In this document: in pieces, positions 1 to 15,816 of the stretch
How positions within the stretch are numbered: the stretch's first letter is position 1
How the letters are laid out: each line of letters opens with the position of its first letter
IMG/VR virus record: IMGVR_UViG_2711768076_000018
DNA: 15,816 nt
From: a virus
Lineage: Duplodnaviria > Heunggongvirae > Uroviricota > Caudoviricetes
Strand: one strand, 5' to 3'
Notes under the pieces: generated by a model
What the model saw: only the letters and a program-made list of their open reading frames with translations
Database searches by the model: none
Told to the model about the DNA's origin: nothing
Program-made: the position numbers and the translations under genes

Positions 1-1236
1 ATGATTACACATTTCCGTCAAGCCATAGAAGAAACGCTACCCTGGCTCTCCTCTTTTGGCGCTGACCCAGCGGGTGGGATGACCCGTTTACTTTATTCGC
101 CGGAATGGCTGGAAACCCAGCAGCAATTTAAAAAAAGAATGGCAGCAAGCGGGCTGGAAACACGTTTCGATGAAGTGGGGAATTTATACGGTCGCCTGAG
201 TGGCACCGAATATCCACAGGAAGTGGTTCTGAGCGGTTCGCATATCGATACCGTGGTTAACGGCGGTAACCTCGACGGGCAATTCGGCGCGCTGGCGGCG
301 TGGCTGGCAATTGACTGGTTGAAAACGCAATACGGCGCGCCGTTACGTACGGTCGAAGTGGTGGCGATGGCAGAAGAAGAAGGCAGCCGCTTCCCGTATG
401 TCTTCTGGGGCAGTAAAAATATCTTTGGGCTGGCGAACCCTGACGACGTGCGGAATATCTGTGATGCCAAAGGAAATAGTTTTGTCGATGCGATGAAGGC
501 TTGCGGATTTACTCTGCCGAACGCCCCACTAACTCCGCGTCAGGATATTAAAGCCTTTGTTGAACTGCATATTGAACAGGGCTGTGTGCTGGAAAGTAAT
601 GGTCAATCAATTGGCGTGGTGAATGCAATTGTCGGGCAGCGTCGCTATACGGTGACGCTGAACGGCGAATCAAACCATGCAGGCACCACGCCGATGGGTT
701 ATCGTCGTGATACGGTTTACGCTTTCAGTCGCATTTGCCATCAGTCGATCGAAAAAGCGAAAAAGATGGGCGATCCGCTGGTTCTGACCTTTGGCAAAGT
801 AGAGCCGCGTCCGAATACGGTGAATGTGGTACCGGGTAAAACCACGTTCACCATTGATTGTCGTCATACCGACGCTGCCGTGCTGCGCGATTTCACCCAA
901 CAGTTAGAAAACGACATGCGGGCGATTTGCGATGAAATGGACATTGGTATTGATATCGATTTATGGATGGACGAAGAACCCGTGCCGATGAATAAGGAGC
1001 TGGTCGCCACCCTGACAGAATTGTGTGAAAGTGAAAAACTGAATTACCGGGTGATGCACAGTGGTGCCGGGCACGACGCGCAAATTTTCGCGCCTCGCGT
1101 ACCAACCTGCATGATTTTCATTCCCAGCATCAATGGGATCAGCCATAACCCGGCGGAACGCACCAATATTACCGACCTTGCCGAAGGGGTCAAAACGTTG
1201 GCACTCATGCTTTATCAACTTGCCTGGCAGAAATAA
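1..1236 (+). CDS. allC: allantoate amidohydrolase (M20 peptidase family)
   Basis: 411-aa ORF starting at window position 1 (MITHFRQAIEETLPWLSSFG ... LYQLAWQK). Recognised from memory as enterobacterial AllC, essentially full length. ATG start, TAA stop at 1234-1236. Confidence 0.9.
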   Translation: MITHFRQAIEETLPWLSSFGADPAGGMTRLLYSPEWLETQQQFKKRMAASGLETRFDEVGNLYGRLSGTEYPQEVVLSGSHIDTVVNGGNLDGQFGALAAWLAIDWLKTQYGAPLRTVEVVAMAEEEGSRFPYVFWGSKNIFGLANPDDVRNICDAKGNSFVDAMKACGFTLPNAPLTPRQDIKAFVELHIEQGCVLESNGQSIGVVNAIVGQRRYTVTLNGESNHAGTTPMGYRRDTVYAFSRICHQSIEKAKKMGDPLVLTFGKVEPRPNTVNVVPGKTTFTIDCRHTDAAVLRDFTQQLENDMRAICDEMDIGIDIDLWMDEEPVPMNKELVATLTELCESEKLNYRVMHSGAGHDAQIFAPRVPTCMIFIPSINGISHNPAERTNITDLAEGVKTLALMLYQLAWQK

Positions 1237-1246
1237 GGAGTCATAA

Positions 1247-1285
1247 ATGGGATATATCTATAACTTATTTTCAATAACGCATTGA
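1247..1285 (+). pseudogene. orphaned gene start: 12-codon ORF (MGYIYNLFSITH) with strong SD, possibly the truncated 5' end of the gene that normally follows allC
   Basis: GGAG at 1237-1240 lies 6 nt upstream of ATG 1247, and the ORF stops after 12 codons. The spacing (10 nt after the allC stop) is typical of a coupled operon gene. From memory, E. coli allE/ylbA begins MGY, but this is not verified. Confidence 0.3.
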
Positions 1286-1329: not shown

Positions 1330-1353
1330 ATTAACTACACCATTAACTACACC
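1330..1353. repeat. perfect tandem direct repeat, 2 x ATTAACTACACC
   Basis: Read directly: 1330-1341 and 1342-1353 are identical 12-mers in a non-coding AT-rich stretch. Confidence 0.6.
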
Positions 1354-1884: not shown

Positions 1885-2178
1885 TTACCGCCGCAACCGC
1901 TCCGGCTTCTTCCAGTGGTAAGTAATTTTTTCTTTCTCCTGGTACATCTCCACGCGGCGACGATATGACAACAACTCCAGAACTCTGGTGCGTATATTGC
2001 GTATATCCACGCCGTTAAGCTCGATACCGTCACGGCGCATCACCTCAGCCACCACACGCGCGTAATTTTTGGCTATCACGCTGTCCGGCTGCGTGGCCTC
2101 CTGTTTGCCTGCTTCCTGGCTGATTCCGGTAACGCGGCGGATTATTTTTAGTAGTTCGGTTTCGCTCATTCTCGTCAT
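1885..2178 (-). CDS. hypothetical protein (97 aa), last gene of packaging operon
   Basis: ATG at 2178 overlaps the TerL stop (ATGA overlap), suggesting translational coupling. No family recognised. Confidence 0.5.
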   Translation of the reverse strand: MTRMSETELLKIIRRVTGISQEAGKQEATQPDSVIAKNYARVVAEVMRRDGIELNGVDIRNIRTRVLELLSYRRRVEMYQEKEKITYHWKKPERLRR

Positions 2179-3836
2179 ACCCCATCAAACGCCGCAAGCC
2201 GCTCTTTGTGGCTGTCGCTCATATCAAATGCAAATTCCTCATGCTCTGCCTGGAATGTGCCAAACGCCATCAGCGCCGCAACGCTCGGGTCTATCTTGTT
2301 GGATGATTTTTTCTTGTTCGGCTTGATATTGGCGTTCGCGTCACTCTGCATCACAACATTACTCATTGACCAGGCCAGCACCGGATCGCCACGATGCACA
2401 ATCACCTTCCGGTTAACAAAAACTTCGAACGATTTCGCCGCCGGACTGAAACGAAGGTATGTTTGCGGGAACGGCTCCACCTCAAATCCTGCCCCCTGTA
2501 GCTGCGTCCTCAGGTGCGTGGCGTTCCATGTATCGAAGCCCACCAGCCTGATATTGAAATTCTCTGCATCCGCCATGATGTCATCACGGATACGGTCATA
2601 ATCAATGCAGTCACCCGGTGTTGTGCGTATCCAGCCCGCCTTTACCCACTGGCGATAGATGGCGCGGTTTTTATTGGCGGGGTTCTGTAGCTGAAATTCC
2701 GGCAGATAGTGACGGGAAACCAGCATAATCTTTTTACCGACCGGAAAGGCATAGCACACGCTGGAAATATCGCTGGTTGATGATAAGTCCAGCCCCGCGT
2801 AGCACTCCTGACCGTATAAATCCGCCTCCGCGAACGTTCCGGCGCACTCCGCCCATGCACCGTTACCCATCCACGGCGTAGCCCCCTGACACCAGATATT
2901 GAATCGCTTGGTGAGCATTTCCACCCACTGCGACGGAATACCCCGCGCTTTCTGGATGGTTGAGGCCAGTTTTTCACGATCGACGGAAACATCGATATTG
3001 GGATTCGCCTTTATCCACATCGCCGGATCGTCAACCTCGCTTTCATCATCCAGCTCGTAAATCAGCACGAACATGGATTCGTTCACCTCTTCACCATCCA
3101 GTATCTGGCAGCAATAGTCATAGTGTTGTTTACAGGCTGAAACAACGTTGCTCCCCGATGTGGTGATGGCAAATAACAGCCCCTCCGGACGCGCCCCCAT
3201 TCCCAGTTCAAGCGCGGAATAAACCCCGTTGTCAGGGTGCAGGTGATATTCATCCACAATGGCAAGACTCGGGTTTGTACCTTCAATGGTTGCCGCTTTT
3301 GCTGCCAGTGGCTTTAACAGGCTGTTGGTTTTCGGGTGTATCACCTTGTGTGCCTGAATATTTACCCGCTTTCGTAACGGTCGGGATAAAAGGCACATCT
3401 GACGCGCATCATCAAACACGATCCGCGCCTGATCACGACTCACGGCGGCGGTGTAAATATCCTGCTGCCCGTTTTCCATAACCAGAAACCAGTTAGCCAG
3501 GATAGCGGCGACCGTGGATTTGGCATTTTTTCGCGGCACTTCAATGAATGCGCTGGTGTATTTGCGCCGTCCGGTGGCCTTAACCTTAAAGCCCAGGATG
3601 CACGCAAAGGCGAACTGCTGCCACGGCTCCAGCTCAATGGGGCTACCGCGCATTGCGCCTTTTACGTGCGGACACACCCTGGAAAAGGCAATAAACCGCT
3701 CCACGACCTCCGGATCGAACGTGTAAAGGGGGTTTTCAAGGTCAGAAAAATACCGTTTAACGGCCTGTTTCAGTCGTTTACAGGCCGTAATTTTGCCGTT
3801 TTTTACGCCTTCTGCGTACTCATGCCAGGCGGTCAA
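2175..3836 (-). CDS. terL: terminase large subunit (HK97-like Terminase_1 family ATPase/nuclease)
   Basis: 553-aa ORF with typical large-terminase length and motifs. The ORF-track start at 3836 is a TTG codon preceded by GAGGA; no in-frame ATG lies nearby. Confidence 0.85.
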   Translation of the reverse strand: MTAWHEYAEGVKNGKITACKRLKQAVKRYFSDLENPLYTFDPEVVERFIAFSRVCPHVKGAMRGSPIELEPWQQFAFACILGFKVKATGRRKYTSAFIEVPRKNAKSTVAAILANWFLVMENGQQDIYTAAVSRDQARIVFDDARQMCLLSRPLRKRVNIQAHKVIHPKTNSLLKPLAAKAATIEGTNPSLAIVDEYHLHPDNGVYSALELGMGARPEGLLFAITTSGSNVVSACKQHYDYCCQILDGEEVNESMFVLIYELDDESEVDDPAMWIKANPNIDVSVDREKLASTIQKARGIPSQWVEMLTKRFNIWCQGATPWMGNGAWAECAGTFAEADLYGQECYAGLDLSSTSDISSVCYAFPVGKKIMLVSRHYLPEFQLQNPANKNRAIYRQWVKAGWIRTTPGDCIDYDRIRDDIMADAENFNIRLVGFDTWNATHLRTQLQGAGFEVEPFPQTYLRFSPAAKSFEVFVNRKVIVHRGDPVLAWSMSNVVMQSDANANIKPNKKKSSNKIDPSVAALMAFGTFQAEHEEFAFDMSDSHKERLAAFDGV

Positions 3837-4905: not shown

Positions 4906-5207
4906 CAGTACACCCCCACATCACGATAAACCGACCAGAGCGCAGAAATAGCCATAGGCAGTTCAGACTGCTCCACTGGTGAAACTGCTTCCCTGTTCTC
5001 GTACAGGAAAGCGATGTACATCAGGCAACCAACACGCATTGCCGGGGTAAATTCCAGCCCGTCTTCAAAACGTTTCCCGATATGCTTCTGGCAGGCTTCC
5101 AGCGCCGCATCGGTATACATTTTCAGAAGTTCGCCTTCACCGGATAAATCATCATCAAGTCGAAGATGTGCCCTGACTTCATCAGGTGTAATTCTGGCTT
5201 CACTCAT
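4905..5207 (-). CDS. head-tail connector / DNA-packaging protein, gp6-like
   Basis: About 100 aa from ATG 5207 (MSEARITPDEV ...) with a strong SD (AGGGAG) just after the portal stop. The ORF-track start at 5270 is GTG and less likely. Confidence 0.65.
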   Translation of the reverse strand: MSEARITPDEVRAHLRLDDDLSGEGELLKMYTDAALEACQKHIGKRFEDGLEFTPAMRVGCLMYIAFLYENREAVSPVEQSELPMAISALWSVYRDVGVY

Positions 5208-6414
5208 CTTTTCTCCCTTTAATTTCCACAGTCTGTTTCCATGCCTGGCTGAACTCATCACCACCTTCACGCGGCGGCATACCCTCGCGTTCGCGAGCTT
5301 CGTTCGGATTCATGATCCCGCTCTTAATCCCTTTCTCATACGTGGCATAACGTTCGGTGGGTGTGGCGCGCAGTAAATCGGCTGAATCAAACTCAACCAG
5401 ATAACGGGTACCAGGTACGGGAGAAGTCACCAGCAAAGCGGCCTTGATTTGCTGTTCGAAGTTCGCCAGCCACGGGCGCATTGTCATGGTCAGAAATGCG
5501 CGGCTCGCCTCACTGAAATTGCTGTAGGTGCTGTTGCTGTATTCCTGAAGAAAAATCGGCGACACGTTGAACATCCTGGCGATGTCTTCAATGGAGAAGC
5601 GACGGGAGGCCAGCCATTCCGCATCCTGGTTACTCATCCCCAGCTGCCTGTAATCCATGCCCCCTTCAAGGATTGGCGTTTTTCCGGCATTTTTCGCCCC
5701 CTTGTAGCGTTCCAGTGCGTCTAATGCCTGTTTACCTTTCACGCCGTCCAGCCATTCACCTGACGTGATAATCCCTGCCGCCATCATGCCATCTTTCATA
5801 ATGCTGGCTCCGTGACGCTGTTGAGCAAGGCCAAGCCCCAGCGCCTCACGGCAAATCGTGACGGGGGAACGCCCCAGAAAGCCATCATCCGAGGCATAGC
5901 GGAGATGCAGAACTTCTTCCTGTAAATACGTGCGCACCGTTCCTGTACAGGGTTCGGTGATGGTATAGCGGTATTTGTGTGTGCCTGTGCGTTCCGGTAC
6001 AACACACCCCGGCGCATAAGGATGAAGTGATTTTGGCTGCCCGTCCCGCCCCCACTCAATAACCGCATAGGCGTTACCGTTCAGCAGGCAGTGACGCATC
6101 ATTGTGCGTTTAAACTGGTAAGGTGTCAGGCACGAATTAGGCTGCTCATTCAGCAGAATATCTACCGGGTGACTGTCCAGCCATTCCCGCGCCTCTCTGC
6201 CCTTATCATTGCGTACCAGATACAGGTAACACGGCATCGTGGCCACCGCCTCAGCGATGACAGAAACCGCGTTCATCACAGCAGGCAATGATTCAGCCGT
6301 CCCGGCAGAAACATATTCTCCGGATCCGGTATTTGGTACACCAGACAACGCCAGAAAATCATCAATGGACAGGTTACGCAGATCGCTTTTTTTACGACTA
6401 AAAGGCCACCACAT
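5200..6414 (-). CDS. portal protein (HK97 family)
   Basis: About 404 aa from ATG 6414 (MWWPFSRKK ...), 1 nt after the protease stop and preceded by a GGGGG SD. The ORF-track start at 6504 is TTG. Size and composition fit a portal. Confidence 0.85.
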   Translation of the reverse strand: MWWPFSRKKSDLRNLSIDDFLALSGVPNTGSGEYVSAGTAESLPAVMNAVSVIAEAVATMPCYLYLVRNDKGREAREWLDSHPVDILLNEQPNSCLTPYQFKRTMMRHCLLNGNAYAVIEWGRDGQPKSLHPYAPGCVVPERTGTHKYRYTITEPCTGTVRTYLQEEVLHLRYASDDGFLGRSPVTICREALGLGLAQQRHGASIMKDGMMAAGIITSGEWLDGVKGKQALDALERYKGAKNAGKTPILEGGMDYRQLGMSNQDAEWLASRRFSIEDIARMFNVSPIFLQEYSNSTYSNFSEASRAFLTMTMRPWLANFEQQIKAALLVTSPVPGTRYLVEFDSADLLRATPTERYATYEKGIKSGIMNPNEAREREGMPPREGGDEFSQAWKQTVEIKGRKDE

Positions 6415-6415
6415 A

Positions 6416-6976
6416 TCACACCCCCGCCAGTTCAGCCCAGCGATGACGATTATTTCCTGCCGGGCGTAATTCAGGGTACTGTGCAAACAACGAACGGTGG
6501 GCAATCTCCACGCCGGATTCGGGATAAGCAGGCATCGATGTTATCGTGATTTCACGGAGTTCTGCTGCGGTTACAGTACGCAGATACGGTTTTTGCGCGA
6601 TATTCCACTCCTCGCATAATGCGCGAAAGCCAAAGCTCATTCCTGTAATATCGCCACGTTCCACCAGCGTAAGCACATCTTTTCCAAGCTGGGTATTTGG
6701 CGGTGTCAGTTCAAAACGTAGCCCGGTGTTATCCTCAGTCAGTACCAGTGAGCCGGATTTGGTACGCCCCAGCAGTTGGGTATAGTCATGCTCATACAGA
6801 CAGCGCACATCATTACCTGCCGCCAGATAGTCAGCAAAAGCCCCCGGCGTGAACTGTTCGCGAAACTCGTCCCAGATAATTTCTGAAAGGCTGTTCCAGC
6901 GAACGGCATAACCCACCAGTTTTTTATCGCTGGCGGTCAGTTCAGATGTACGGATTTCAAAATCGGTGTTTTTCAT
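6416..6976 (-). CDS. prohead maturation protease (HK97 family)
   Basis: 186 aa from ATG 6976 (MKNTDFEIRTSEL ...) with GGAG SD. Conserved GMSFGF-type motif region. The ORF-track N-terminal extension to 7201 overlaps the capsid gene and is unlikely. Confidence 0.85.
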   Translation of the reverse strand: MKNTDFEIRTSELTASDKKLVGYAVRWNSLSEIIWDEFREQFTPGAFADYLAAGNDVRCLYEHDYTQLLGRTKSGSLVLTEDNTGLRFELTPPNTQLGKDVLTLVERGDITGMSFGFRALCEEWNIAQKPYLRTVTAAELREITITSMPAYPESGVEIAHRSLFAQYPELRPAGNNRHRWAELAGV

Positions 6977-7025: not shown

Positions 7026-8171
7026 TTACTTGCCAGCCTGAATTTCCAGAATCTTGATGGCGTTCGAATCCACCACACCACCGCCCAGATATTTCTGGGT
7101 ATAGATGTTAATGAATCCAGGCTCGCTGAAATCCGGACGGGTACGCGTACCGGTTTTATGGTCAACGATGAAATAACCGCGCTTAAAGTCACCGACTGCA
7201 ATCACACCGTCCGGCATAAATTCCAGATATTCAACCGGAAGCCCCAGCAGAGAATCAGGATCACCAGCCTGTAAACGATCGCGCCAGATGTAATCACCAG
7301 TGGCATTTTTCAGTTTTTGTGCGGAGGCGGCTGTATTTGAGTTCATCACCCATACAGCTTTTTTGCGGTACTTATTGCGCAGCGTAAATTTCAGGTCAAT
7401 CAGCATATCGGCGCTGAGACTGCCAGTCACTTTTTTCGTCTGGAGCGTACCGAAAGGACGGGTTTTGTCATTATCCGTAGTGCGCGGGAAAGTCAGGAAA
7501 CCTTTGGCTTTTTTCTCGCCATCACCGGAAACCAGATCCGTTTCTTCGGTATCAACGAAAGTGTCGCCAATTTCAGAAGATAACCAGCCCATAATATCGA
7601 CTTCGGAAAAATCGATAATTTCCTGAGTGGTTTTCGGGTAAGCGTAGATCGGATACAGGCGGATACTGACTTCATTCAGTTTTGGGGTTGCCGTCTGGTT
7701 ACGTGCCGCACCTTCTTCGCCGTGTCCCACGACCGCCCCCCCGGCAGAAACCAGTTGCTTAAATTCATTACTGTGAATGGTTTTAACAGTACAGATTTTA
7801 CGCATCACCGACTCATCAGAAAGCTGACGCATAATTTCTCTGTTCAGTTCCGGGATAACCGTATAACCACCATCAGCCGGAACACTGCCGGACAGGTTGC
7901 GGGTTTCCCCGGTCAGAATGTAAGAGCGTAGCTCATTTTTGGTGATTTTATCTTCGACGGGAACACCAGGCTGGTTACGTTCTTCATCAGCCACAGACTC
8001 GAGGCGGGAAATTTCTGTGTCGAGGGAATCGGCTTTTGCACGCAGTTCATCAAACTGTTTGCCTTCGTCATCGGTTAGACTGCGGTTTTCACTGTCGGCT
8101 TTTTCCAGCAGGGATCGCATCTGGTTTTTCAGGGCGGTTTTTTGCTGGCGGAGTTCGATTAATTTCTTCAT
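7026..8171 (-). CDS. major capsid protein (HK97 fold) with N-terminal coiled-coil delta domain
   Basis: 381 aa, ATG at 8171. The N-terminal 60 aa are coiled-coil-like (MKKLIELRQQKTALKNQ ...), followed by a capsid-shell domain with HK97-like C-terminal motifs. Confidence 0.9.
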   Translation of the reverse strand: MKKLIELRQQKTALKNQMRSLLEKADSENRSLTDDEGKQFDELRAKADSLDTEISRLESVADEERNQPGVPVEDKITKNELRSYILTGETRNLSGSVPADGGYTVIPELNREIMRQLSDESVMRKICTVKTIHSNEFKQLVSAGGAVVGHGEEGAARNQTATPKLNEVSIRLYPIYAYPKTTQEIIDFSEVDIMGWLSSEIGDTFVDTEETDLVSGDGEKKAKGFLTFPRTTDNDKTRPFGTLQTKKVTGSLSADMLIDLKFTLRNKYRKKAVWVMNSNTAASAQKLKNATGDYIWRDRLQAGDPDSLLGLPVEYLEFMPDGVIAVGDFKRGYFIVDHKTGTRTRPDFSEPGFINIYTQKYLGGGVVDSNAIKILEIQAGK

Positions 8172-8354: not shown

Positions 8355-8392
8355 CCAGAATCACCGAACAACCTGGAACAACCACGAACAAA
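8355..8392 (-). promoter_or_regulatory. three 10-bp-phased TTGTTC repeats upstream of the capsid operon (candidate activator site)
   Basis: Plus-strand GAACAA at 8366, 8376 and 8386. On the minus strand this reads TTGTTCGTGGTTGTTCCAGGTTGTTCGG. The 18-mer TTGTTCGTGGTTGTTCCA is identical to 14651-14668. Confidence 0.5.
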
Positions 8393-8407
8393 TAATTTAC
8401 AAAACCT

Positions 8408-8440
8408 GAAAAAAGGCCCGGAAAAAATCCGGGCCTTTAT
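8408..8440 (-). terminator. intrinsic terminator after the replication/ProQ operon (bidirectional-capable)
   Basis: GGCCCGGA-loop-TCCGGGCC hairpin. The minus-strand RNA has a U6 tract after the stem. Lies just 3' of the 82-aa ORF and about 240 bp upstream of the capsid start. Confidence 0.7.
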
Positions 8441-9963: not shown

Positions 9964-10192
9964 CTTCACCTGTTCACCTTTTGAGATTTTCCCTTTTTAT
10001 TCATAATGTTAAGGGGTGAACAGTTTCACAAAAACTATTCACCAACTGTTCACCACTGTTCACCCTTAAAGCTCAATAAATAATCAAAAAGGTGAACAGT
10101 GAATAGTTTGGTGAACAGTTCACAAATAACTGTTCACCCTATAATGTACTGATATAAAAGATATTTATAACAGGGTGAACAGTGGTGAACAG
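9964..10192. repeat. replication origin: iteron array of 9-bp GGTGAACAG / CTGTTCACC repeats flanking AT-rich DNA
   Basis: Perfect copies of GGTGAACAG at 10015, 10091, 10110, 10174 and 10184. Perfect inverse copies CTGTTCACC at 9970, 10046, 10056 and 10130. Degenerate copies at 10035 and 10099. AT-rich stretch at 10140-10170. The array abuts the primase stop at 10206. Confidence 0.75.
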
Positions 10193-10205: not shown

Positions 10206-12020
10206 TTAATTTTTGCTGTCGTCATTTGTGACCGATGCACATGATGGCATCCAGTCTTCTGAATCCTCTGTCAGTGTCACATTTGAACGCAAACCGTGCT
10301 TCGTTTTCCGTTTTATATACTCCCTGCCATATTCCGCCATTGCCCCCGGCATATCTTTACCGAAGCGCGTCAGTGTTACAGGTTTACCGAATCCGTGTGC
10401 CCTCATATATGCCAGATAGGCGTGATAAAGATACCTGCGCGGACTGAACGGAATAATTTCGGCATTACCCACTAACAGACCATCACACATTACCGACGAC
10501 ATGAGATAGCCACAGAAGTCCACCAGCGAATCGCCCTCGCGTTTTATCACCAGAGCTTCTTCTGATTTCTGCTGCTCATACAGCAGGCGTTTAGCTTCGT
10601 CCTGGTCAGAAAAACGAGTAAGCAGATGGCGAATCACAACCGCCAGCTCTCCTTCTATTTTTTCTGCCAGCATGGGGTCGCGCTCGTTCTCCGGTACAAC
10701 CTCCGAAAAATTGAATATCACCCGACGACGTGAGATCCCCCCGCTGCGGTCACTGAATGACATGGCGTTATTGTTCACCGCCAGCACGACCGCCTGAATG
10801 CGTGTTGAGTAGGGGGCTTTATGCTTCGGGTCGATTGCCACCTTGTCACCGCCTGTAATAGCCTTAATTCCTGCGCCATCACCAGCGTAGCGGGTCATAT
10901 CCGGCATGATAATCAGCGAAAAGCCAACCACTAACGCGCGTTCCCTTGCATCTTCCAGCGCCTTCATGCTTGCCGATACTGTGTTGGCCTTACCCGCCAG
11001 CATGGTGCAAATCTCCGCCATCACGCTTTTACCACTTCCCCCTGGACCTGTTACCTCAATGAATAACTGCCAGTCGTACCGGTTCGCCAGCACCATGAAT
11101 AATGCAGCCAGCACGCGATCCGTCTTGCGGTCATTCTCTGCCACCGAGCAGCGTAACCACTTCCAGAAATTCGGCGCATGTGTTGCCAGCGTTTCCCCCT
11201 CTGCTGGTGGGCTGAAAGGTAATTCACTGGCAATTAACAACCAGTCGTTTTTGTTATGCTCCCGAAAATTACCTGTTCTGGTATCAAATACCCCGTTACT
11301 GAATCCAATCAGGTTACGGGCTGTATTCCCCATTACAGGCAAACTTAACTTCATGGTATCGACCGCCGATTTAATGGCGTTCTGCGAATAGCTGATCTCC
11401 GCATCAATGAAAATCTGCGCCATAGCACGCTGTAACTCTTTATCCTGAATCGGCTCCCATACAACGCCGTTGTAATGGTGAACAGTGTCAGAGTCGGCAT
11501 GAATCGCCAGTTCACCGCCATAATGTGCCAGGAGAACTTCGCCGCGCTGGCTTGCTCCCATCTGGTTAAGCGCCAGTGGTGCGGCGCTGTCTTCTGTTTT
11601 TTTCTTAACAGGAAGCTGAATCACCAGACCATCAGAAAGATTCTGGCGCTCACGGGCCAGATATTCGCGCCAGTTCTGCACCTCCTGGCCGTGCATACCC
11701 TCAGGATAAAAATTTGCATCCTGTACGCCTGCCGCCGCCAGCTTCTGACCAATCGCCTTTATCATTACTGGCGCAAGATATCCGGCCCTGAATATGCGCA
11801 CGGATTTTCTGCCTTCCGGCACAATTTGCAGCTTATCCAGTTCGGATAACTGCTGCTCCCCAAGCCACACAGGAGGCTCATTATCTCCGGCCATACGCGC
11901 GTCATGTTCCTGCCATTGTTTTGCGTGTGACCAGGCATCACTACCCGCAAAAATAATGACTTCTGTTTCTTTGTGTTTTATGCCGCGTGACTGCTGTTTT
12001 ACGTTCGGTGCCAGTTTCAT
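10206..12020 (-). CDS. primase/helicase replication initiator (P4-alpha-like, Walker A NTPase C-terminal domain)
   Basis: 604 aa with Walker A GPGGSGKS in the C-terminal half, of a size typical for satellite or plasmid primase-helicases. ATG 12020 overlaps the upstream stop (ATGA). Confidence 0.85.
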   Translation of the reverse strand: MKLAPNVKQQSRGIKHKETEVIIFAGSDAWSHAKQWQEHDARMAGDNEPPVWLGEQQLSELDKLQIVPEGRKSVRIFRAGYLAPVMIKAIGQKLAAAGVQDANFYPEGMHGQEVQNWREYLARERQNLSDGLVIQLPVKKKTEDSAAPLALNQMGASQRGEVLLAHYGGELAIHADSDTVHHYNGVVWEPIQDKELQRAMAQIFIDAEISYSQNAIKSAVDTMKLSLPVMGNTARNLIGFSNGVFDTRTGNFREHNKNDWLLIASELPFSPPAEGETLATHAPNFWKWLRCSVAENDRKTDRVLAALFMVLANRYDWQLFIEVTGPGGSGKSVMAEICTMLAGKANTVSASMKALEDARERALVVGFSLIIMPDMTRYAGDGAGIKAITGGDKVAIDPKHKAPYSTRIQAVVLAVNNNAMSFSDRSGGISRRRVIFNFSEVVPENERDPMLAEKIEGELAVVIRHLLTRFSDQDEAKRLLYEQQKSEEALVIKREGDSLVDFCGYLMSSVMCDGLLVGNAEIIPFSPRRYLYHAYLAYMRAHGFGKPVTLTRFGKDMPGAMAEYGREYIKRKTKHGLRSNVTLTEDSEDWMPSCASVTNDDSKN

Positions 12021-13208: not shown

Positions 13209-13407
13209 AGCTGCCTCGATACTTCTGCTATCGTTGGTGGTTAGAAGCCCGTTGGTGTTGGTAGCACCTGCGGGCTTTGTCTTTTCATCGATTACCTTAA
13301 TAAAGGTGTCAGCCACTATACTAGTGACAGGTGTCAGCCACGTCAATAGTGTTTTTCTATTTTCTTGTGTGTATACTGTCAGCCACCTAATAACAAGGAA
13401 ATCAGAT
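13209..13407. promoter_or_regulatory. divergent promoter/operator region with three TGTCAGCCAC repeats
   Basis: TGTCAGCCAC at 13307-13316, 13332-13341 and 13377-13386. The third copy overlaps a TATACT -10-like hexamer upstream of the plus-strand gene at 13408. On the minus strand the repeats read GTGGCTGACA and contain -35-like TGACA. Confidence 0.45.
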
Positions 13408-13587
13408 ATGGCAACGAAAGCAGTTAATGGAAAATCCAAAAAACTTGAGGCACGAGTACCCCATGCAATAGCTGACGCTGTAGAAAATTTAAAGGAAGAA
13501 GGCGAAAGCACTGGGCAATTTATCGTTTCGGCGCTTGAAGGTGAGATCAAACGCCGCCAGCGCCGAAAGGCCAAAGAGCAGGAATAA
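13408..13587 (+). CDS. small ribbon-helix-helix-like DNA-binding protein (59 aa), candidate regulator
   Basis: ATG 13408 with AAGGAA SD. The predicted strand-helix-helix pattern (KLEARVPHAIADAVENLKEEGESTGQFIVSALEGEI) and basic C-tail fit an RHH protein. It is one of only two plus-strand genes in the element and diverges from the replication operon. Confidence 0.55.
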   Translation: MATKAVNGKSKKLEARVPHAIADAVENLKEEGESTGQFIVSALEGEIKRRQRRKAKEQE

Positions 13588-13644
13588 CCATCACCAGCGC
13601 CGTGGTGTAAGGTATTACGGCGCATTGCTATGCAGGACAACACA

Positions 13645-13818
13645 ATGACCGATAAAGAATTGACCAAAACATTATCACCGACACGGAAAAGACGACGCAG
13701 AAAGATAGAGCATGAATCAGAAAGATTCGCGCCATGTGCTTTTGCCCTTGAGCAATTCCTTAAAGAGTACAGGGAAAAGCGCTCATTGCAGGTATGGCAA
13801 CGAACTGAACCAGACTGA
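13645..13818 (+). CDS. hypothetical small basic protein (57 aa)
   Basis: ATG 13645 preceded by AGGA at 7-nt spacing. Followed by a plus-strand terminator at 13885-13913. Confidence 0.35.
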   Translation: MTDKELTKTLSPTRKRRRRKIEHESERFAPCAFALEQFLKEYREKRSLQVWQRTEPD

Positions 13819-13884
13819 TTGCATTGCCCACCAGCCGCAAATGTGGCATTGTTGGTGATGCTTTTGTTTTCCCTTGTTCCCACT

Positions 13885-13913
13885 GGCGACCCTTTTGCGG
13901 TCGCCTTTGTTTT
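13885..13913 (+). terminator. intrinsic terminator for the plus-strand small-gene unit
   Basis: GGCGACC-cttttgc-GGTCGCC hairpin followed by TTTGTTTTGCTT. Confidence 0.65.
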
Positions 13914-13951
13914 GCTTGTTATCCGGCAATAGTGGCGCTTCACCACACGGT

Positions 13952-14038
13952 TGATATAATTCCCCTGCACTGATCCATTTTTTTCGCAGCAGGTTAATTG
14001 TTCAGAAAGGCGGTTCCTTATCGGGGCCGCTTTTTTTA
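13952..14038 (+). ncRNA. candidate small RNA (about 70 nt) from an extended -10 promoter to an intrinsic terminator
   Basis: TGaTATAAT at 13952-13960 is a consensus -10 with extended TG motif; the -35 is poor. Terminator hairpin GCGGTTCC-ttatc-GGGGCCGC plus T7 lies at 14010-14037. No ORF with an RBS lies between. Confidence 0.3.
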
Positions 14039-14150
14039 TGCCTGAAAATACCCGATAACATGGCTTTTTAGTTTCACCAGGACGAACGAAGCCCCGCCCC
14101 TGTTCGGGCGTATATCCAGTATTCATGGTTAGATCTCTGTGTTAGTGGAT

Positions 14151-14178: not shown

Positions 14179-14367
14179 TTAGTGAACTGCCTCGCGGCTG
14201 TCCTTCCATGCCAGAACTTCGGATAAAGACCAGCCAACGGAACGACCGCCGAGTTTACGCCGTGATGGGAATTGTCCGGTCTTCTCCAGGCGATACCGAC
14301 ATGAGCGGCTCAGGCCTGTAAGTTGCTGACATTCTTTTTCACGTATAAAGCGATCTGTGCTTAACAC
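14179..14367 (-). CDS. alpA: AlpA-family (Xis-like winged-helix) transcriptional regulator
   Basis: 62 aa with the AlpA signature: a helix-turn-helix around TGLSRS and a downstream GWSLSEV motif (compare VGW in CP4-57 AlpA). GTG start at 14367 with a strong AAAGGGGGAA SD. Sits immediately downstream of int. Confidence 0.8.
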   Translation of the reverse strand: MLSTDRFIREKECQQLTGLSRSCRYRLEKTGQFPSRRKLGGRSVGWSLSEVLAWKDSREAVH

Positions 14368-14410: not shown

Positions 14411-14458
14411 TTGGGTTGGGTTGTGTCTGATTGTGTCAGGATGATTCAGAGTTGGCAA
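14411..14458 (-). promoter_or_regulatory. candidate alpA promoter overlapped by 10-bp-phased TTGNGT repeats
   Basis: Minus-strand TTGCCA (plus 14453-14458), a 17-bp spacer, then CACAAT (plus 14430-14435). Plus-strand repeats TTGGGTTGGG / TTGTGTCTGA / TTGTGTCAGG at 14411-14440 have exact 10-bp phase. Confidence 0.3.
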
Positions 14459-14530
14459 ATGTTGAGGCCGTATGGTTTACAGAAAGAGGAACAATCAGGA
14501 TAAAATCATTTAAATTCATGTTAATACAAA

Positions 14531-14560
14531 GGCATAAAATCTCGTTTTATGCCTTTTTTC
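14531..14560 (-). terminator. intrinsic terminator between int and alpA (bidirectional-capable)
   Basis: GGCATAAAA-tctcg-TTTTATGCC hairpin, with TTTTTTC following on the plus strand and TTTGTATT on the minus strand. Confidence 0.6.
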
Positions 14561-14650
14561 TTACGCGTTAAAGCGTTATTCGCTAATGTATAAAAAACCA
14601 GTCACACAAATAAAATCAGTCACTTATAAACCTGTGTACTTTTTCGCCTC

Positions 14651-14700
14651 TTGTTCGTGGTTGTTCCACGTTGTTTCACATTGTTCGCCGTTGTATCTGT
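14651..14700 (+). promoter_or_regulatory. five tandem 10-bp-phased TTGTTC-type repeats just 3' of int
   Basis: TTGTTCGTGG TTGTTCCACG TTGTTTCACA TTGTTCGCCG TTGTATCTGT. The first 18 nt are identical to the array upstream of the capsid operon (8374-8391, opposite strand). Confidence 0.5.
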
Positions 14701-14742: not shown

Positions 14743-15816
14743 TTATTTTCTTCTGGCTGCTGGTAGTGCGGTTACGTTTTCATGTGCTCCCGCCAGTATC
14801 CCTAACCGCTCCGTCCACATATCCAGCGCATTGCGTTTCGCATCCAGATAACGGGAGTGATTATAGACTCGTTGCATCCCTGGCATCTGGTGTCCTGTAA
14901 GCTGCTCCACGACATGCGGATCAACGCCTAAATCGTTCAGCATGGTTGTAAAGGTGCGCCGGATGTCATGCAGTGACCAGTGGGGGTGATTAAGCCTCCT
15001 GTGCGCTAATCTTCCATACTGCGATACGCTGGCCTCCTGTTTCACTTCCCCCAGCAATAAGCCCGTGTGCCTGTTCTGCTCCACCAGCTGCGTGATGAAC
15101 GGCAGTATTGCTTCCGGTATAGGCCGGAATATGGCTACCTTCGTTTTGCTGTGCTCCTTCGGAACGGTCCAGAGCATTTCGGTAAAATCCCACTCGCCGA
15201 TCTCCGATAACCTAAGTTCGACCGTCCGGCATCCGAACACAATCAGGAGGCGGATTAGCGCGATGTAGTAGGGGGAAAATATTTTTTTGTCCAGTGCCTG
15301 CAATAATTCGCCCAGCTCTTTATTGCTTAAGACACGTTCGCTTATATCCGGTTTTTTCCCAACGTCCGCTACGTTCAGATCATCGAGAACGTTACTGATT
15401 GCATAGCGCCGCCTCCGGCAGTACTTAAGCGCCTGTTTGCATGTCTGTAGCACGAATCCGGCAGTAACAGGTGTTCGCTTTGCCACCTGGTCAAAGCAGG
15501 CCAGCCAGTGCCGTAGCTCGCATTTATCCAGCGGCATAGCACCAATTTTGGTGATTATGTTTTTATTGATCCGGCTTTTCAGTGATTCGTAATCTGTGCG
15601 CTTTTCCTTTGCGTACGACTCAAGCCAATAGGTGAGCGCATCGCCAACCGTTACAGGCTTTAACGCTTCCTGCATGGTGTAATTCAGTTCATAGCGTGGA
15701 TTTTTCCCCTCAGCCAGCCATGCGCGACACTGGGCGGCTTTTTCCCTGGCTGCTTTCAGACTCAGATCGGGATAATTTCCCAGCTTAACGCGTTCAGGTT
15801 GTGTCCCTCTTCCCAT
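14743..15816 (-). CDS. int: tyrosine integrase (P4/CP4-57 type), 5'-partial
   Basis: 357 aa visible, with the C-terminal catalytic region (HDIRRTF ... YNHSRY). The region LGNYPDLSLKAAREKAAQCRAWLAEGKNP aligns, from memory, to around residues 55-85 of P4-type integrases, so about 45 N-terminal codons probably lie beyond the window. Confidence 0.85.
   Translation of the reverse strand: MGRGTQPERVKLGNYPDLSLKAAREKAAQCRAWLAEGKNPRYELNYTMQEALKPVTVGDALTYWLESYAKEKRTDYESLKSRINKNIITKIGAMPLDKCELRHWLACFDQVAKRTPVTAGFVLQTCKQALKYCRRRRYAISNVLDDLNVADVGKKPDISERVLSNKELGELLQALDKKIFSPYYIALIRLLIVFGCRTVELRLSEIGEWDFTEMLWTVPKEHSKTKVAIFRPIPEAILPFITQLVEQNRHTGLLLGEVKQEASVSQYGRLAHRRLNHPHWSLHDIRRTFTTMLNDLGVDPHVVEQLTGHQMPGMQRVYNHSRYLDAKRNALDMWTERLGILAGAHENVTALPAARRK

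Follow-up and report, generated by a model that had tools for sequence, protein, structure and literature searches.

Phased GAACAA-core arrays in a capsid-forming phage satellite of Escherichia coli are candidate operators for the excisionase-type protein AlpA

Which protein reads the short direct repeats, set one helical turn apart, that separate the integrase gene int from the small gene alpA in an Escherichia coli phage satellite? We addressed this question in a DNA stretch of 15,816 nucleotides (IMG/VR record IMGVR_UViG_2711768076_000018; hereafter called the window), which, judged from its genes and junctions, is a capsid-forming phage-inducible chromosomal island (cf-PICI) of the EcCIEDL933 type, inserted in the 5′ end of the host gene allE. 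An initial annotation had drawn attention to these repeats and had linked them to the control of alpA and int. By comparing them across related islands, we arrived at a reading that we hold with slightly more than even confidence, namely that the repeats are head-to-tail operator arrays for AlpA, which would serve both as directionality factor and as transcription regulator.

The int-alpA spacer carries five units at an exact spacing of 10 bp, which on the + strand read TTGTTC (14651), TTGTTC (14661), TTGTTT (14671), TTGTTC (14681) and TTGTAT (14691). They lie 43-92 bp downstream of the int stop codon and approximately 200-250 bp upstream of the predicted alpA promoter. The repeats and their phasing thus agree with the initial annotation, but their assignment to the int 3′ region does not hold, because they are located in the spacer, past the int stop codon at 14743-14745. 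A search for TTGTTYN4TTGTTY with at most one mismatch returned 10 matches in the window against 0.62 expected, a number that was reached in 0 of 200 shuffles, and the three window arrays with at least three phased cores had no counterpart in 200 shuffles.

Segments related to the int-alpA region were found in 1157 of 5426 complete E. coli genomes, including an identical one in E. coli AST240, between allC and allE. In a sample of 70 related loci with an AlpA that is 87-100% identical, 67 have an array at the spacer position, consisting of 3-6 units whose number changes in whole 10-bp steps. Measured over distinct sequences, conservation relative to the window was 91% at the core positions, 0.64 in the spacers within the array and 77% in the int-alpA spacer as a whole. 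In comparative terms, the conservation of the cores, the whole-unit steps and the recurrence of the motif at defined positions are hallmarks of selection on a sequence-specific protein site. The suggestion that the repeats are a protein operator tied to alpA control is sustained, both by the cores being better conserved than the spacers (0.91 versus 0.64) and by related units over the alpA -10 element.

Overall, the GAACAA-core motif in 10-bp phase occupies five places: the int-alpA spacer, the alpA -10 region, the region upstream of the capsid gene, and the left and right arms of the attachment site (att). The array upstream of the capsid gene (8366-8391) is part of an ultraconserved block (Table 1) situated approximately 195 bp upstream of that gene and just after a terminator (8415-8440). 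It is present in 26 of 27 capsid-bearing relatives, and the block is identical between lineages at 41-43 of its 45 positions, compared with 35-45% identity in the flanks. In the left arm, three phased units follow a 12-bp doublet at a distance of 16 bp, and this far-end array was found in 19 relatives as well as in the island EcCICFT073 and in loci L075 and L076. The right arm lies just past the end of the window, and its units form two groups located between the crossover core and the start of int; an array upstream of int was present in all 18 relatives in which that flank is available (18/18). All 7-mers common to the spacer and both arms derive from the unit TGAAACAACGTG, and no others were shared.

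A role in small-terminase binding or as a cos site was set aside, because arrays also occur in relatives that lack packaging genes. A scan of viral contigs for four AACAA units, which sought the motif beside an unrelated integrase, returned low-complexity noise and members of the same family only, and a search for AlpA relatives among contigs from one genome per species gave 3 loci only, two of which were too distant to compare. The strong hairpin GGCCCGGAAAAAATCCGGGCC at 8415-8440, with A and T runs on either side, splits the ssb/proQ-like genes from the capsid-upstream array; by its sequence, it is terminator-like and marks the border of the replication module with the packaging module.

Because the same motif is present in each att arm and also ahead of the capsid operon, the reading that unifies these positions is a set of AlpA sites for excision plus transcription. 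Among known structures, AlpA matched PDB 8c3t, the excisionase of GIsul2 (E = 5e-7), and a predicted model of AlpA (predicted local distance difference test, pLDDT, 88) had the GIsul2 excisionase 8c3t (TM 0.80-0.86), RdfS, TorI and BldC as its top fold matches. Both sequence and model indicate that AlpA is a winged-helix excisionase-type protein. Proteins with this fold form head-to-tail oligomers with one DNA turn per protomer, and they bind attP beside the arm sites of the integrase (Int) as well as promoters, including their own (PMC11963761). Several features expected of an excisionase array are present: at least three direct repeats one helical turn apart, the same motif in attP at 7-16 bp from the 12-bp doublets on both arms (also in EcCICFT073, L075 and L076), and a cognate small winged-helix protein of the excisionase type encoded by the island itself (PF05930, 8c3t and the fold matches).

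No proteins other than Int and AlpA are shared by every array-bearing island. The AlpA of the window is identical at 61 of 62 positions to that of EcCICFT073, which activates PalpA-lacZ and, when acting alone, triggers int-dependent excision and replication (PMC6092414); likewise, mutation of alpA is described in the literature as abolishing induction of the cf-PICI EcCIEDL933. In the mechanism that we propose, direct repeats with a GAACAA core would be occupied by a head-to-tail row of AlpA protomers, each taking up one helical turn. At the arrays that flank the integrase arm-type doublets on the two att arms, AlpA would serve as directionality factor in excision, and from the array upstream of the capsid and packaging operon it would probably activate late genes. 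We infer AlpA as the bound protein, and the same applies to the sign of regulation at each site and to activation of the late operon.

A different assignment would make the GAACAA arrays themselves arm-type sites of the integrase, so that Int would also have sites past the end of its own gene and ahead of the capsid operon. All islands in this integrase clade have arrays on the two att arms, whatever their AlpA allele, and none are present in HE-PICIs, whose Int is 41-45% identical; moreover, arm sites of the lambda type can be arranged in tandem at approximately 10-bp spacing. However, the position of arm sites is held by a separate 12-bp doublet, as in HE-PICIs and the annotated arm repeats of P4. 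One ATTAACTACACC doublet lies in each arm, approximately 78 and 132 bp from the core, the second copy being located at 18897-18920 of locus L001, 23 bp upstream of the int start codon.

The doublet, and not the arrays, changed with the integrase. In the island at thiM/rcnR, the β-sheet of the Int N-terminal domain (N-domain) reads DGGGLEIKHSKGGKLTWYFRYR in place of DGGNLSVRHSTSGLLTWYFTYR, and exactly there the doublet switches from ATTAACTACACC to two copies of ACTGACCACACA, whereas the adjoining GAACAA arrays stay constant. The island at clpS/cspD has the window-type β-sheet and keeps the ATTAACTACACC doublet despite a different AlpA allele. Because the doublet switches with the Int N-domain while the arrays stay, it is the doublet that follows Int; this is what the sequences of a small number of lineages indicate. 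The arrays are alike in Int A and Int B islands and do not follow the N-domain as integrase arm sites would be expected to, and we know of no role for Int at late promoters. We consider the assignment of the arrays to Int improbable and rejected it in favour of the 12-bp doublets, which covary with the N-domain and occupy the arm-site position.

Halfway from the crossover core to the left-arm doublet, at 1275-1287, AATCAATGCGTTA on the - strand fits the consensus WATCAANNNNTTR of the integration host factor (IHF); this is the position expected of an arm-bending site.

At the alpA end of the spacer, TTGCCA-17-CACAAT scored 9/12 and was the best sigma-70-like site in two scans. Its hexamers are separated by a distance within the 16-18 bp of sigma-70 promoters, the site is conserved in relatives, and its -35 element is invariant in 54 distinct relatives. 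A variant lineage with a different spacer sequence keeps TTGCCA-17-AACAAT, in which the -10 element falls inside a GGAACAAT unit. The second phased set that had been described over the predicted alpA -10 was recovered, with units at 14411, 14421 and 14431, the last two of which (TTGTGT, or ACACAA on the - strand) overlap CACAAT and the likely start site of PalpA. This set is real but weaker than the five-unit array.

In the proposed AlpA mechanism, autoregulation would come from the array ahead of the alpA promoter together with the units on its -10 element: the upstream five-unit array may be a high-affinity activating or nucleating site, and the degenerate units over the -10 element may limit expression at high AlpA levels. 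The initial annotation had suggested such autoregulation, which gains from the finding that the nearly identical EcCICFT073 AlpA, with a homologous spacer, activates its own promoter region (PMC6092414); what did not stand is the notion of a device private to the int-alpA spacer, given the arrays elsewhere in the island.

Between the array and the promoter lies a hairpin with a stem of 12-13 bp (-16.6 kcal/mol, z = -4.5 on the + strand; -15.2, z = -3.5 on the - strand), whose stem is conserved in relatives, including a compensatory change from A-U to G-C. Described earlier as a bidirectional terminator, it is indeed stable and conserved, and its + strand T-tract is universal (24 of 24 sequence variants), but the - strand tail TTTGTATTAA falls below the criterion of the terminator scan and is lost in approximately 7 of 55 variants. 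The hairpin may insulate the alpA promoter region from outside transcription. No Rfam RNA family matched the window at gathering score, and the hits around the spacer were no better than chance.

Rightward transcription entering from the alpA side would also end at the conserved + strand terminator, short of the array and int, which bears on the suggestion of an antisense transcript across the int 3′ end. No + strand promoter-like site scored above 8/12 in the promoter scan. In the spacer (+ strand), as well as ahead of the capsid operon, a -10-like CATACT element follows the last unit after 21-22 nt, a suitable distance from the array, but it is absent in the second spacer lineage. With the low scores, the lost element and the blocking terminator, the antisense proposal is a weak one, and an AlpA-driven antisense-int RNA, though conceivable, is unsupported.

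Two AAAAYCAGTCAC repeats also lie in the spacer (Table 1). Of interest here is that CAGTCAC forms the heart of the lambda Int arm-type consensus, as the known helpers are lambdoid.

Several observations weigh against AlpA as the protein that reads the arrays. Islands with a second AlpA allele (allele 2; 317 genomes), which is 61% identical, keep the GAACAA arrays in their att arms, and those with an HK97-type module also keep the capsid-upstream GAACAA array. In most allele 2 islands, the place of the GAACAA array in the spacer is taken by 2-3 AATATC units at 10-bp spacing. The spacer array therefore differs by AlpA allele (GAACAA versus AATATC), whereas the att and capsid arrays do not. The wing SRR(K/N)LGGRSVGW is common to both alleles, as are R21, R24 and Y25 in the predicted recognition helix. 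Judged from these sequences, either GAACAA is read by both alleles and AATATC has another purpose, or a protein other than AlpA binds. Comparable arrays are absent from HE-PICIs, whose AlpA is 54-58% identical, but their Int differs as well (41-45% identical).

Relative to the direction of transcription, the arrays point one way at alpA and the other way at the capsid operon, and no convincing promoter could be placed downstream of the capsid-upstream array. Furthermore, AlpA left Pint-lacZ unchanged in EcCICFT073 despite the arrays upstream of int (PMC6092414), which also speaks against the initial view that AlpA control extends to int.

The AATATC units lie just after the int stop codon (L075 13832-13857; loci L077-L108), and their copy number varies by 10-bp steps. 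No other copy of the AATATC array was found in the allele 2 islands L075 and L077-L108.

Because of the allele mismatch, the lack of arrays in HE-PICIs, the opposite orientation and the missing capsid promoter, a host or helper factor stays as a rival to AlpA. The binder would then not be encoded by the island but would be either a winged-helix excisionase or regulator of a helper phage, similar to P2 Cox, or an OmpR/PhoB-type response regulator of the host, a class that likewise recognises half-sites in 10-bp tandem, for example GAAACA; helper or host would then switch alpA on by way of the int-alpA array. We judge this unlikely. In its favour, the arrays follow neither the split between AlpA1 and AlpA2 nor that between Int A and Int B. 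P4 has three 10-bp-spaced TTAAAG repeats upstream of vis, the Cox boxes through which its helper P2 activates it. For the OmpR-type version, the spacing of 10 bp speaks against such a regulator, because 11 bp is typical of several OmpR-family sites.

Transcription of EcCICFT073 alpA rises only upon induction of a helper phage, and the inducer was left under study (PMC6092414); no later identification was found in the literature that we searched. Cross-talk of excisionases between elements has also been reported (PMC11773190). Yet AlpA alone, with no helper, suffices for excision, replication and PalpA activation in EcCICFT073 (PMC6092414), so that a binder encoded by the island would be enough, and the arrays adjoin the Int doublets in the att arms, as would be expected for a cognate directionality factor. 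By analogy, the five-unit array might more narrowly be a helper-responsive switch, to which a winged-helix excisionase or regulator of the helper binds, instead of or together with AlpA, to turn on alpA; we give this version little credence. If true, the spacer arrays (GAACAA versus AATATC) would set which helper phages induce which PICI.

The AlpA reading was also set against two explanations in which neither excisionase nor integrase is the reader. One dispenses with a sequence-specific binder altogether and regards the units as phased short A-tracts whose intrinsic bends aid intasome folding and promoter function. The units do hold AA or AAA runs in helical phase, and the AATATC units of allele 2 islands are another A/T-rich phased repeat at the same place in the spacer; however, the invariant positions include C and G (G/C-AACAA), G/C-rich spacers are also conserved in the capsid-upstream block, and the A-runs are shorter than classical bending tracts, so that we regard bending alone as very unlikely.

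The other explanation takes the arrays for extra iterons of the primase/helicase initiator, like crr in P4. TTGTTC resembles the start of the TGTTCACC iteron, of which approximately ten copies cluster just downstream of the primase gene, and crr, the second iteron cluster of P4, lies near attP. Against this, the arrays are unchanged in islands whose replication proteins are 41-60% identical or belong to other families (RepA helicase, DUF927), and L075 shares the primase type and the iterons (89% identical) but has no GAACAA array in its int-alpA spacer. With array presence showing no covariation with the primase/initiator allele (41-100% identity and other families), replication iterons were rejected, and we find the idea scarcely credible.

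The octamer cluster is of interest in its own right. Approximately ten exact TGTTCACC copies, on both strands and partly in 10-bp tandem, occupy 9971-10191 just downstream of the primase-helicase gene, and, judged from this arrangement, they are probably the replication origin. The P4 record annotates 8-bp "ori type 1 repeats" in ori and crr, and P4 9310-9413 reads GGTGAACA, the complement of TGTTCACC.

We compared the layout of the window with known systems. P4 and the window both have int followed by a gene of the AlpA family (vis in P4) and TGTTCACC iterons adjoining the primase gene. As in the window, P4 has 12-bp "attP arm sequence repeats", annotated in NC_001609, that form tandem doublets on both arms. 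It likewise has a GGACAA/GGAAGA/GGACGA triplet with 10-bp spacing 19 bp after the int-proximal doublet (L365 3984-4009) and three 10-bp-phased repeats upstream of vis, and the predicted recognition helix of Vis begins with LSRS, as does that of the window AlpA. P4 differs in that the repeats upstream of vis are TTAAAG boxes, bound by Cox of the helper P2 and not by Vis, in lacking both a capsid operon and an array downstream of int, and in its Vis of 88 amino acids, which has an N-terminal extension and aligns only loosely. Vis is reported to give a footprint within attP and, like Int, to regulate int (PMC2603039). The GGACAA/GGAAGA/GGACGA triplet of P4 is absent from the annotation of the record and is a candidate Vis site.

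EcCICFT073, which we located in CFT073, resembles the window more closely, with a homologous int-alpA spacer that contains a five-unit array, the same hairpin and a nearly identical promoter-proximal stretch of 75 bp, and with att arms that combine the same doublet and array. Unlike the window, it is a classical PICI whose capsid gene is of the lambda type and has no GAACAA array ahead of it, and it is integrated between roxA and phoQ, with the core GGACATATT, and not at allE.

HE-PICIs were described by Mageeney et al. 2023 as carrying a doubled motif (TGTATTGC x2) in two co-oriented copies approximately 81 and 132 bp from the crossover, for which these authors proposed integrase arm binding and which they regarded as unique to HE-PICIs. 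This motif is comparable to the window doublet in its tandem 12-bp period, its two copies and its similar distances from the core, but differs in its sequence, TGTATTGC, and in the lack of neighbouring GAACAA arrays.

AlpA has the same fold as lambda Xis, RdfS, BldC and TorI. The sites of lambda Xis lie on one arm only, whereas the window arrays flank doublets on both arms. Proteins of this type place one protomer per helical turn on direct repeats and bind both attP and promoters (PMC11963761), but RdfS and BldC have little or no site consensus (PMC11963761), unlike the window arrays with their sharp core.

The AlpA of Pseudomonas aeruginosa has in common with that of the window its name, a helix-turn-helix DNA-binding element, the positive control of lysis-type genes and the presence of terminators nearby. 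It is much longer, with DNA-contact residues at 128-142 and an N-terminal ring threaded into the RNA exit channel, and it reads a single GGGACG element (ABE) between -35 and -10 (PMC9371919); the window AlpA has no ring-forming N-terminal segment. Antitermination of the P. aeruginosa type was rejected for the window AlpA, which at 62 amino acids consists of the winged-helix domain only.

The positions of the sites and genes are listed in Table 1. Gene identities were taken from Pfam and from RefSeq annotation, and the junctions were defined by comparison with the empty K-12 site. After allC, with which the window starts, nearly all genes of the mobile element are on the - strand. The gene order is int-alpA-primase followed by capsid, protease, portal, HNH, TerS and TerL within approximately 14-15 kb with its own att site, which is the gene set described in the literature for the capsid-forming PICI EcCIEDL933. 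For the AST240 locus, RefSeq adds a prohead protease, a head-tail connector, HNH, TerS, a single-stranded DNA-binding protein (SSB) and a ProQ/FinO protein, and the same locus gave the full-length Int of 409 amino acids.

Table 1. Coordinates of sites and genes in the window.
Feature	Position	Strand	Description
allC, host gene	1-1236		Peptidase_M20; window starts with allC
Crossover region GGGATAT	1249..1255		7-bp identity of both junctions, in first codons of allE; compared with empty K-12 site
ATTAACTACACC x2 doublet, proposed integrase arm-type sites	1330..1353	+	second copy outside window
Three phased units GAAACAA, GGAACAA, GACACAA	1370..1396	+	left att arm, 16 bp after 12-bp doublet
TerL	2175-3836		
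Portal gene	5200-6504		
HK97-type capsid gene	7026-8171		
45-bp ultraconserved block	8361..8405	+	three to four phased units; GAACAA at 8366, 8376, 8386
D5_N/Pox_D5 primase-helicase	10206-12020		
Two-unit pair GAACAAGGGAAAACAA	13864..13879	-	beside + strand terminator 13885-13905; weak candidate site
alpA	14179..14367	-	62 amino acids; Pfam PF05930, E = 2.7e-18
Promoter-proximal phased units	14411..14436	-	TTGGGT 14411, TTGTGT 14421, TTGTGT 14431 on + strand, 10-bp spacing
Predicted sigma-70 alpA promoter	14430..14458	-	-35 TTGCCA 14458-14453, 17-bp spacer with TG, -10 CACAAT 14435-14430
Second promoter-like site TTAACA-16-TATCCT	14497..14524	-	9/12; directly after hairpin; well-conserved stretch
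A/T-rich hairpin (AAAGGCATAAAA / TTTTATGCCTTT)	14528..14556	.	terminator-like on + strand (TTTTTTCTT tail), weak on - strand
Two AAAAYCAGTCAC repeats	14594..14623	+	18 bp apart; within best-conserved spacer block; nowhere else in window
Five-unit 10-bp-phased array	14651..14700	-	ATACAA/GAACAA/AAACAA/GAACAA/GAACAA on - strand, TTGTTC on + strand
int, P4-type tyrosine integrase	14743..15816 and beyond	-	stop codon 14743-14745; first ~52 codons past window end

The second junction lies at 19049-19055 of L001, approximately 240 bp past the end of the window. The island follows directly after allC, and the original ATG of allE stays at the left junction (1249-1255, 1237-1330; L001 19049-19090). 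In the lysogen, the allE gene called by RefSeq is 42 nt (14 codons) shorter than that of K-12, and the insertion therefore probably alters allE expression.

Other putative regulatory elements were observed in the window and its relatives. Three exact TGTCAGCCAC repeats, two of them within a 25-bp tandem unit starting with AGGTGTCAGCCAC, lie at 13307-13386, in the divergent region before a + strand gene of the YlcI/YnfO family (13408-13587) and around a promoter-like site, TTGACG-17-TAGTAT, on the - strand; from their arrangement, they look like a separate operator of another regulator. Past alpA, the region 13589-14126 consists of overlapping, unsupported open reading frames and includes, with TTGTT units on its flanks, the + strand terminator at 13885-13905. 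For AST240, RefSeq annotates an incomplete hypothetical protein there, and for the L075 counterpart an "ash family" protein that is likewise incomplete; no Rfam family matches 13589-14126. By analogy with the immunity leader of P4, this may be a non-coding regulatory region.

In the integrase clade at thiM/rcnR (L127 13865-13901; L076 ~15225-15260), a G+C-rich hairpin with T5-8 lies directly before the alpA start, leaving no room for a promoter between hairpin and start; judged from this layout, alpA expression in that clade may depend on terminator read-through or antitermination.

The literature that we searched contains no mapped AlpA binding site for any PICI, EcCICFT073 included, and treats the location of AlpA binding and the cooperation of AlpA with Int as open questions. 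That an excisionase regulates transcription through phased direct repeats is already known as a principle from Xis, Vis, Cox, TorI and RdfS. The present analysis contributes a candidate AlpA box, its five positions, and the doubled arm motif in other PICI integrase clades and P4, findings of a kind that would not surprise specialists. The doubled attP motif that was reported to be unique to HE-PICIs now extends to other PICI integrase clades and to P4, and the candidate AlpA box is distinguished from what are likely the arm sites of the integrase. Gram-negative phage satellites have AlpA as their master switch; expressing it alone is enough to excise and replicate them. Because EcCICFT073 shares the layout and already has reporters and mutants, the question of an AlpA box is readily testable.

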